Shown here one piece after another: positions 12,293-13,451 of a stretch of DNA of 27,582 bases; the first letter of the stretch is position 1, and each line of letters begins with the position of its first letter. A program made the translations under genes and the position numbers. The DNA is taken from contig JAISMZ010000027.1 of the NCBI GenBank assembly GCA_031276475.1, positions 1 through 27,582 on the forward strand. Reading direction: 5' to 3'. The notes beneath the pieces are model-generated. The model ran no database searches and had not been told where the DNA came from. It was given only the letters and a program-made list of their open reading frames with translations. This stretch comes from Coriobacteriales bacterium (GTDB lineage: Bacteria; Actinomycetota; Coriobacteriia; Coriobacteriales; UBA8131).

Positions 12293-13451
12293 TCAGCATC
12301 GCATCCCCAAAGGAAAGAAAACGGTAATCACTCTGCAAGGCCTGATGATAAGCCGCCAGCAGCCTCTCGCGCCCGGCAAAGGCGCTGACCAGCATCATCA
12401 GTGTCGTGCGCGGCGCATGAAAGTTGGTCAGCAGCAGGTCGGTCGCCCGAAAGCTAAAGCCGGGCATGATGAACAGCCGGGTCTGCTCACGAAATACGGG
12501 GCGCAGGGCCGCACTCGCATTGTCCCAGGCGCTTTCCAGCGAGCGAACACTGGTCGTGCCAACGGCAACAACGCGTCCGCCAGCGGCTCGCGTCTCGGCA
12601 AAGGCCTGCACGGTAGCCGGCGGCAGCGAGTAATATTCGCTGTGGATGGCGTGGTCTTCGGCCCGCGGCTCGACGACGGGACGAAAGGTGTCCAGTCCGA
12701 CCTCCAGATCGACCGTCGCCAGGCGCACTCCCCTGCTCTGGAGCTGCTGCAACAGTTCGGTCGTGAAGTGCAGGCCGGCCGTCGGTGCTGCCGCTGAGCC
12801 TTCGCTTTGCGCGTAGACGGTCTGGTAGAGTCCGCTGTCGCCGCGATAGTCATGAATGTAGGGCGGCAGCGGCAGGCTGCCCAGCCGATGCAGGGCGGCG
12901 TCGACGCTTTCTGCGCCCGTGGTACTCAGACGGACAACGCGACCGCCGCGAATCTCTGCCGTCGCCCAGTCCTCAACGCGCACGCTGAGGCCGTCAAGGG
13001 CTATCTCGGCGCCGGGTTTCAGGCGGCGACCGGGCGAGACGAGGGCCAGCCAGCGCTCGGCGTCCGTGGCGTCTGCGGCTGCGGCGGCGTTAGCAGCCAC
13101 GGTGGCAGCTGGTGACAAAAGGGATGGCTCCGGCAGCACAGAGGGACGGTTCTTTTGTGTTGCCGGAGCCATCCCTTTTGTCACCGCCGAGCCGAGTCGG
13201 CGCAGCAGCAGCAGCTCGGCCGCGCCGCCGCCGCGCCGCCTGCCTACCAGGCGCGCAGGCATCACCTTTGTCTCGTTAACGACCAGGAGGTCTTCGGCCG
13301 CGAGGTAATCCGCGATGTCAGAGAAGCGGCGGTGCTCGATGCCGCCCGTGGCGCGGTGCAGCACGAGCAGGCGACAGGAGTCGCGCGGGACAGCCGGAGC
13401 GGCGGCGATGTGCTCCTGGGGCAACGGGTAATCAAAGTCAGCGGTCAGCAT
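12285..13451 (-). CDS. queA: S-adenosylmethionine:tRNA ribosyltransferase-isomerase with an in-frame palindromic insertion
   Basis: [73 protein letters not shown] and [15 protein letters not shown] 13451 has an AGGGGAG RBS. Confidence 0.95.
13111..13185. repeat. 75-bp palindromic REP-like element inserted in-frame in queA
   Basis: 30-bp arms GGTGACAAAAGGGATGGCTCCGGCAGCACA / TGTGTTGCCGGAGCCATCCCTTTTGTCACC (29/30) around GAGGGACGGTTCTTT. Length is exactly 25 codons. Confidence 0.88.

Follow-up and report, generated by a model that had tools for sequence, protein, structure and literature searches.

A 75-bp palindrome lies inside queA on a 27,582-nucleotide (nt) contig of a Coriobacteriales bacterium (GTDB lineage UBA8131; assembly GCA_031276475.1, contig JAISMZ010000027.1; this whole stretch is referred to below as the window), and is translated as part of the enzyme. 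Hairpins of the same family are dispersed through the genome and are carried in frame by other genes, the site in queA is empty in the closest relatives, and in related genomes and in Bacillota the same hairpins bracket genes for a Y1 transposase. We consider it likely that the queA palindrome is a copy of a miniature repeat of the repetitive extragenic palindromic (REP)/REPIN type, mobilised by a Y1 enzyme resembling the REP-associated tyrosine transposases (RAYTs) and tolerated in frame in a loop of QueA. What is new here is the repeat family and the lineage that carries it; in-frame palindromic repeats are already known as a phenomenon.

A palindrome translated within queA

The window had previously been read from its sequence only, without database searches, and that sequence-only reading had described a near-perfect hairpin of 25 codons with arms pairing at 29 of 30 positions. 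Its coordinates, arms and encoded peptide were confirmed in an intact queA gene (Table 1). Complementarity of the outer arms (13111-13135 and 13161-13185) is 25/25, is 29/30 over 30-bp arms and falls to 89% over 37-nt arms; inside the 25/25 arms, pairing continues with G-T-type mismatches around a central GGGACGGTTC. Folded as single-stranded DNA (ssDNA), the palindrome reached -40.5 kcal/mol (z = -11.1), a value equalled by none of 200 shuffles, and in the queA mRNA it reached -67 kcal/mol (z = -9.4) with an RNA duplex of ~29 bp. The 'perfect phase' attributed to the element is correct in that its length is a multiple of three, but its first base falls on the third position of codon 89.

Three GGGAYGGYTC units had been recognised within the palindrome and these are present at 13121, 13143 and 13166, with six such units in the window against 0.3 expected. 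That motif is, however, too loose, as it conflates the true core with the diverged GGGATGGCTC, the variant in the queA outer arms, which is found in this genome at chance level (7 copies versus 7.3 expected). The element is made up of one canonical hairpin unit with an inverted half-unit on either side. From its sequence, the left outer arm looks like the 5' half of a diverged unit of the GGTGACAAAA-GGGACGGTAC-GATTTTGTCACC subfamily, and layouts of half-units with full units like that in queA occur elsewhere in the genome, for example on contig C163.

Table 1. Coordinates and properties of queA, of the repeat copies in the window and of other genes with in-frame copies.
Feature	Position	Strand	Description	Support
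queA	12285-13451	-	388 aa, intact	Pfam Queuosine_synth, E 1.4e-118
Nested palindrome, translated inside queA	13111-13185	none	75 bp = 25 codons; residues about 89-114	
Central canonical unit	13130-13166	+	stem CCGGCAGCACAGA, core GGGACGGTTC at 13143-13152, stem TTTTGTGTTGCCGG	
Left outer arm	13111-13129	+	GGTGACAAAA + GGGATGGCT(C)	
Right outer arm	13167-13185	-	exact reverse complement of left arm; same two core substitutions	
GCN-rich tract	13069-13110	-	encodes 14 Ala-rich residues; limits alignment-dependent, +/- few nt	
queH/queA-junction palindrome	13470-13610	none	terminator-like subfamily GGACAC-GGGGACGGTTC-ATCTGTCC-TGTTTTC; queH 3' end, just upstream of queA start	
Truncated unit	1-17	-	GGCAGCACAGA-GGGACGG subfamily; contig edge, inside open EamA-like frame running off contig	
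RecQ			insert within Zn-binding module	Pfam
Maf			in-frame insert	Pfam
DinG-like helicase-exonuclease	contig C108:237-4118 (L167)		94-residue insert	Pfam
Nnr (Carb_kinase)			in-frame insert	Pfam
MFS transporter			insert in central loop	Pfam
PurL			insert residues about 350-390	Pfam + relatives
GT2 glycosyltransferase			in-frame insert	Pfam
CoA-enzyme activase			in-frame insert	Pfam

The site is empty in the closest relatives and maps to a disordered turn of QueA

QueA was compared with 25 sequences from the genomes of relatives and with P0002 and P0003, retrieved from a large protein database. The last two are the closest proteins in that database (73% and 69% aligned identity, respectively; 348 aa) and both are insert-free, in agreement with the proposal that the palindrome had inserted into a surface loop. 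The contig that corresponds to P0002 (L164) is syntenic, with the order csp-queH-queA-tgt; it has exactly 123 nt fewer at ~13069-13191 and no copy of the core motif. The insertion relative to this closest orthologue therefore amounts to 41 codons and comprises the palindrome together with a 48-nt GCN/Ala-rich tract, so that the 75 bp originally given as its extent describes the palindrome but not the full insertion.

The possibility that orthologues lacking the repeat simply have the same loop was also addressed by these sequences, and found no support in P0002, in P0003 or in the solved T. maritima QueA (1VKY), which aligns to residues 1-90 and 133-387 of the query with nothing matching 91-132. 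In most of the 25 relatives the segment from ELLLLRRL to W-x-ALV-x-PGRRLKP is only 3-10 residues in length; a few have a long segment of unrelated sequence there, with low-complexity inserts that bear no relation to the present one. An AlphaFold2 model based on a 44-sequence alignment had a mean pLDDT of 87.1 and agreed with solved QueA structures, and its only segment below 50, residues 89-127, forms a turn between strands 77-86 and 132-139. All residues invariant in the QueA family are kept. The insert is thus predicted to be a disordered surface loop which leaves the enzyme fold intact. It occupies a beta-hairpin turn in QueA's small domain, and this loop is hypervariable in the lineage. 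The decorated QueA is presumably expressed and active.

The same loop of QueA in a same-family relative (G003) has an independent in-frame palindrome of 222 bp (L023:896-1117), with 48-nt arms that are 98% complementary. This is a different dispersed repeat, a 17-mer from its arm having 20 copies at two or fewer mismatches (14 exact) in a 1.1-Mb assembly. The turn in QueA is a place where insertions recurrently land or are tolerated.

Given a very stable duplex within the mRNA, a second large palindrome of the present family at the queH/queA junction and the independent strike on the same loop in G003, one might suppose that the hairpin is kept as useful, either as an RNase III or translation-pausing site tuning queA or as a functional peptide loop. 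We regard this as very unlikely: the closest relatives do without the insert, the same units occur in many unrelated genes (see below), the peptide is predicted to be disordered, and tolerance of insertions explains the recurrence at this loop equally well.

The palindrome belongs to a dispersed repeat family

The assembly (2.07 Mb in 299 contigs; 60% G+C; 82% complete) was searched in full for the core words. The sequence-only reading had predicted a genome-wide family, and the counts bear this out: GGGACGGTTC has 178 copies and GGGACGGTAC has 38, in each case versus 7.3 expected, and the reversed control words have 2 (reversed GGGACGGTTC) and 0 copies. The invariant part of the family is a ~10-nt core, GGGACGGT(T/A)C, that lies between variable complementary stems in a unit of ~25-32 bp. 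Stems of different subfamilies (GACACAGA/TTTGTGTT, GGACATAA/TTGTGTCT, TGACAAAA/TTTTGTCA and GGCGTCGACAG/CTGTCGACGCC) differ in sequence with their complementarity kept, and units are arranged singly, in tandem arrays of full and half-units, or as inverted doublets around a ~35-bp centre. Grouping of the core matches gave 121 clusters, 52 of them with two or more cores. Contig ends are no more than 240 nt away from 53 of the 121, so that the family is a main cause of the fragmented assembly.

A genome-wide count of the full arms of the queA element had been suggested as a check. Its inner 25-32 bp are high-copy, but the whole 75-mer has a single occurrence: contig C20 has a copy that matches positions 13132-13163 (32 nt) at 100%, and about 60 copies across the genome share the inner 25 nt exactly.

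Two other copies in the window had been proposed to share the core. At the queH/queA junction this was correct, with three GGGAYGGYTC units at 13479, 13506 and 13580. The subfamily concerned has a core that can pair with a downstream CCGTCC followed by a T-run, and looks like an intrinsic terminator. The queH frame crosses this large palindrome (window 13438-13673), acquiring a tail of ~60-80 residues with a stop that overlaps the queA start; QueH has 216 aa on L164 versus 294 aa for the open reading frame (ORF) in the window. The copy in the EamA-like gene is of the same family as claimed, but it is a piece of a unit, cut off by the contig edge and confined to bases 1-17, and may or may not be intragenic. 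Elsewhere in the window (9207-11099), the periplasmic domain of SecD has a low-complexity insert of ~100 residues rich in Ala, Pro and Asp, and loop expansion seems to be common in this genome even without the repeat.

Searches of Rfam returned sub-threshold matches to generic (miRNA-like) hairpins and no family match, and a literature search for the core string returned only unrelated eukaryotic primers and sequences.

In-frame copies in other genes

Among 68 evaluable clusters, an open frame that shows coding signal to either side of the repeat runs through 14. This is 21%, versus a coding density of ~86% by a crude gene model; the repeats are depleted from genes, yet far from excluded. Copies are found in frame in at least nine genes besides queA, and in those confirmed with Pfam (Table 1) the domains lie on both sides of the insert or are split by it, so that the hosts are real genes. 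Intact ORFs guarantee that intragenic copies have lengths divisible by three (survivorship), and the enrichment of such lengths proposed as a check would therefore be uninformative. PurL provides a second comparison with relatives, six of which (78-85% identity over the N-terminal half) are without the inserted residues, and the peptide of its insert matches 25 other places in the genome. QueA, PurL and the DinG-like protein all contain the peptide TQKNRPSV, the product of one unit read in one frame, and by inspection the 25-nt unit has zero stop codons across six frames.

The insert in the DinG-like gene is a composite palindrome with seven cores and is the largest translated copy found. On contig C221 (3703-5190; L172), a single frame contains both HPPK (folK) and RsmI-type methylase domains with the repeat-derived NRTDEPSPCPL between them; the arrangement could stem from a gene fusion mediated by the repeat or from stop-codon loss.

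These copies also bear on whether the palindrome could be an assembly artefact, that is, a repeat-induced chimera or a fold-back in a fragmented metagenome bin. The number of contigs and the proportion of clusters at contig ends do indicate that the repeats disturb assembly. The queA frame is nevertheless kept through the insert, collinear conserved queA sequence bounds it on both sides, nine or more other genes with different flanks show the same in-frame behaviour, and in G003, of the same family, this loop contains an independent palindrome, so that an artefact appears extremely improbable.

A candidate transposase in relatives and in Bacillota

The 20-mer RGGGACGGTTCTTTTGTGTY was present in at least 109 stretches of a species-level genome collection. 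Among the matches listed nearly all were from Bacillota, with hosts that included Clostridia, Peptococcaceae-type sulfate reducers and syntrophs, Acetobacterium, Alkaliphilus, Aquibacillus and Bacillus. All five Bacillota genomes with the 20-mer that were examined have Y1_Tnp genes, and at six of nine Bacillota loci (L141, L142, L144, L146, L147 and L148) a Y1_Tnp gene for a protein of ~250 aa is bracketed by inverted GGGACGGTTC hairpins. In the window's own Coriobacteriia family, as assigned from QueA matches, Y1_Tnp matches were found in 16 of 34 genomes. Eight loci of this family, whose Y1 genes scored like RAYT-like ones at about 50-65 bits, were inspected for flanking units; at four (L156, L157, L158 and L161) the gene is again bracketed by inverted GGGACGGTTC hairpins, and at one of these four, in G002, the flanking unit matches the central unit of queA over about 25 nt.

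The RAYT-like proteins have an HUH motif, a tyrosine region with the sequence RYIHQNP and a C-terminal tail with weak matches to helix-turn-helix (HTH) families in Pfam (E 0.06-0.12), and they match NCBIfam REP_Tyr_transpos at 72-75 bits. A Coriobacteriia and a Bacillota representative have 42% identity over their full length, and the DNA core is the same despite this divergence, which fits the core being the recognition element of the enzyme.

The distribution of the family is patchy. The 16-mer AGGGACGGTTCTTTTG is found in three of the 34 family genomes; the present one has 64 copies and the others have 8 and 5. Of 151 sampled Coriobacteriia only two have amplified the 15-mer GGGACGGTTCTTCTG, with 101 copies in the present genome, and the other 149 have 0-1 copies. 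The second is G069, from another Coriobacteriia family, in which an independent amplification has produced 36 copies, mostly as inverted pairs 29-57 nt apart. Exact 20-mer hairpin pairs were also seen in metagenome-assembled genomes (MAGs) labelled as Prevotella (L090 and L100) and as PVC-group (L052), and these reflect either cross-phylum spread or binning contamination.

Other candidates were tried and rejected. A borderline tblastn match on contig C64, considered as a RAYT, is an aminotransferase. At Bacillota loci L060 and L040, inspected for a full-length element with a transposase between distant inverted copies, the genes present were all ordinary ones, such as tuf and that for an MFS transporter. 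An SsnA-type GIY-YIG nuclease as an alternative partner is unsupported, as the only GIY-YIG domain of this genome is that of UvrC.

Relation to known repeat systems

The present family resembles the REP/REPIN-RAYT systems (REPtrons) of Escherichia coli, Pseudomonas and Stenotrophomonas (PMC2817692, PMC3116915, PMC3733652) in consisting of short imperfect palindromes at high copy number; in forming inverted doublets or clusters, like bacterial interspersed mosaic elements, that are mostly outside genes with occasional translated intragenic copies; and in the association, here in relatives and in Bacillota, of a single Y1/HUH gene with flanking inverted units. It differs from them in having no GTAG tag or head next to the stem, and in that its invariant part is the core between variable stems and not a conserved tagged stem. 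The associated protein is also different, with ~250 aa and a long C-terminal tail, as are the hosts (Coriobacteriia and Bacillota), and a Y1 gene flanked by units in the same genome was not found in this assembly. The suggestion of mobilisation by a RAYT thus receives indirect support, from the flanked Y1 genes of other genomes.

Assignment to the CGTC-tagged class of REPs, made because one strand of the core reads CGTC, did not hold. In CGTC REPs, which form families CGTC-1 to 4 and have no known transposase, the CGTC is unpaired and sits at one end of a stem of 8-9 bp, the loop measures 4-5 nt and there is a 3-nt CCA-like tail (PMC3733652). In the present family CGTC forms part of the core GAACCGTCCC, which the stem arms enclose; the loops span ~10 nt and a tail is absent. 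As regards miniature inverted-repeat transposable elements, a non-exhaustive search showed no insertion sequence (IS) with ends like those of the hairpin.

Intragenic in-frame repeats have been described as Rickettsia palindromic elements (RPEs) and as GTAG and CGTC REPs of Opitutus terrae and Thauera, often in repair or replication genes (PMC3733652). The novelty claimed beyond RPEs is accordingly limited to the family and the lineage, as in-frame REPs were already documented elsewhere. The present copies are alike in being in-frame palindromes in functional genes that add 20-80 residues in tolerant loops, and RecQ and the DinG-like helicase are among their targets. The likeness to RPEs, which is drawn from their description, is one of behaviour only: sequence, structure and host lineage are considered unrelated, the host here being a member of the Coriobacteriia, and the present family has a candidate transposase whereas none is known for RPEs or CGTC REPs.

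A closer match to the candidate enzyme may be found among long RAYT-like proteins. Quentin (2018) defined a TnpA-REP subclass 2.1 with a C-terminal HTH and found no REP-like sequences adjacent to its genes (PMC6006769); Di Nocera (2013) described TIRtrons and their TIRYTs, with flanking inverted repeats containing GGGGWSAS (PMC3733652); and Bertels (2017) found Group 1 RAYTs also in Clostridia, with low-copy flanking 16-mers (PMC5581495). Going by these descriptions, the present proteins are similar in combining a Y1 domain with a C-terminal extension that ends in an HTH-like segment, recognised here from weak HTH matches. The flanking inverted repeats likewise contain a G-rich word, GGGGACGG of some subfamilies fitting GGGGWSAS at 7 of 8 positions as in TIRtrons, and a moderate repeat-family size is shared with all three systems. 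Unlike those of subclass 2.1 as reported by Quentin, the present flanks are hairpins that have been amplified to about 200 copies. The main texts of PMC3733652, PMC6006769 and PMC5581495 contain neither 'Firmicutes' nor 'Actinobacteria'. We tentatively propose, as a possibility that we hold at somewhat less than even, that the GGGACGGT(T/A)C hairpins are the missing cognate repeats of these long HTH-tailed RAYT-like enzymes (subclass 2.1/TIRYT/Group 1-like), reported without a REP partner, and that recognition is through the conserved loop or core and not a tagged stem.

Origin of the queA element

If the queA palindrome is a REP/REPIN-type copy as we favour, units of this family would have been mobilised in trans in this genome, as ssDNA hairpins; the enzyme would be a RAYT-like Y1 (HUH) tyrosine transposase, ~250 aa in length and carrying a C-terminal tail. 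If it acts as IS200/IS605 and RAYT enzymes do, excision and rejoining of the units would take place on hairpins in single strands, probably at replication forks (PMC2817692, PMC3116915, PMC6006769). The family could in this way have expanded to about 200 units, with one copy that landed in, or grew within, the turn of the QueA beta-hairpin. Intragenic insertions would be expected to persist only with a length that is a multiple of three, without a stop codon and at a site that tolerates a floppy loop; the encoded peptide, rich in Gly, Pro, Ser, Thr and Ala, would be tolerated as a disordered surface loop. The QueA copy would survive because it combines such a length with a stop-free unit and a disordered surface-loop peptide. 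The Ala-rich tract may have preceded or followed the repeat, and the direction and order of the events behind the nested structure are matters of inference.

Several observations weigh against this account. The action of the transposase on the hairpins is a candidate pairing, based on the sequences and layout of the loci, and against NCBIfam REP_Tyr_transpos the RAYT-like proteins scored 72-75 bits, just below the curated cut-off of 80. Neither the PF01797 profile nor tblastn with nine RAYT-like queries detected a Y1 transposase in this assembly, which is 82% complete and breaks at repeats. The queA junctions showed no direct repeats, and no target-site signature was found. No public sequencing runs were found that could provide read support for the assembly. 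The insertion in queA includes the non-repeat Ala-rich tract, and the whole 75-mer is unique. Finally, the two outer arms share the same two substitutions and yet pair at 25/25 positions, which shows that one was copied from the other or that both were kept alike. It argues for a palindrome formed locally, or for conversion between its arms, over a single clean transposition; part of the structure therefore probably formed locally.

Taken further, these last features could mean that the family is real but that the queA element grew in place in a hypervariable low-complexity loop, through replication slippage, through template switching at hairpins or through recombination or gene conversion with other copies, or that the family was moved by another enzyme. 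The uniqueness of the 75-mer, the arms, the Ala-rich tract and the absence of a detected Y1 gene all favour this alternative, as do the unrelated low-complexity inserts at the same loop in relatives and the tandem half-units that are common around full units elsewhere, which suggest local growth. Growth in place nevertheless leaves unexplained the identity of the central 32 nt to a distant copy and of the inner 25 nt to about 60 others, and dispersal to >100 unlinked loci needs a mobilising mechanism, for which Y1 genes with the same flanking hairpins in same-family relatives and in Bacillota are at hand; with an SsnA-type nuclease unsupported for the reason given above, we consider this alternative unlikely and retain the REP/REPIN-type origin.

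Implications

Palindromic repeats read in frame have been familiar ever since the RPEs of Rickettsia, and the present findings add no new principle. They do describe a REP-type family that adds loops of 25-95 residues to housekeeping enzymes (QueA, PurL, RecQ, Maf, Nnr and others), with an empty-site control, and that is tied to a candidate transposase across two phyla. Inserts of this kind make MAG assemblies larger and more fragmented, and they confuse annotation, for instance where ORFs become extended or fused. The system also offers a tractable test of how a Y1 transposase recognises a conserved hairpin loop. If true, recognition through the loop or core would explain how the same 10-20-mer is found from Bacillota to Coriobacteriia despite the divergence of the proteins, and sporadic bursts of amplification, as in this genome and in G069, would repeatedly supply core enzymes of gut and anaerobe lineages with new loop peptides.

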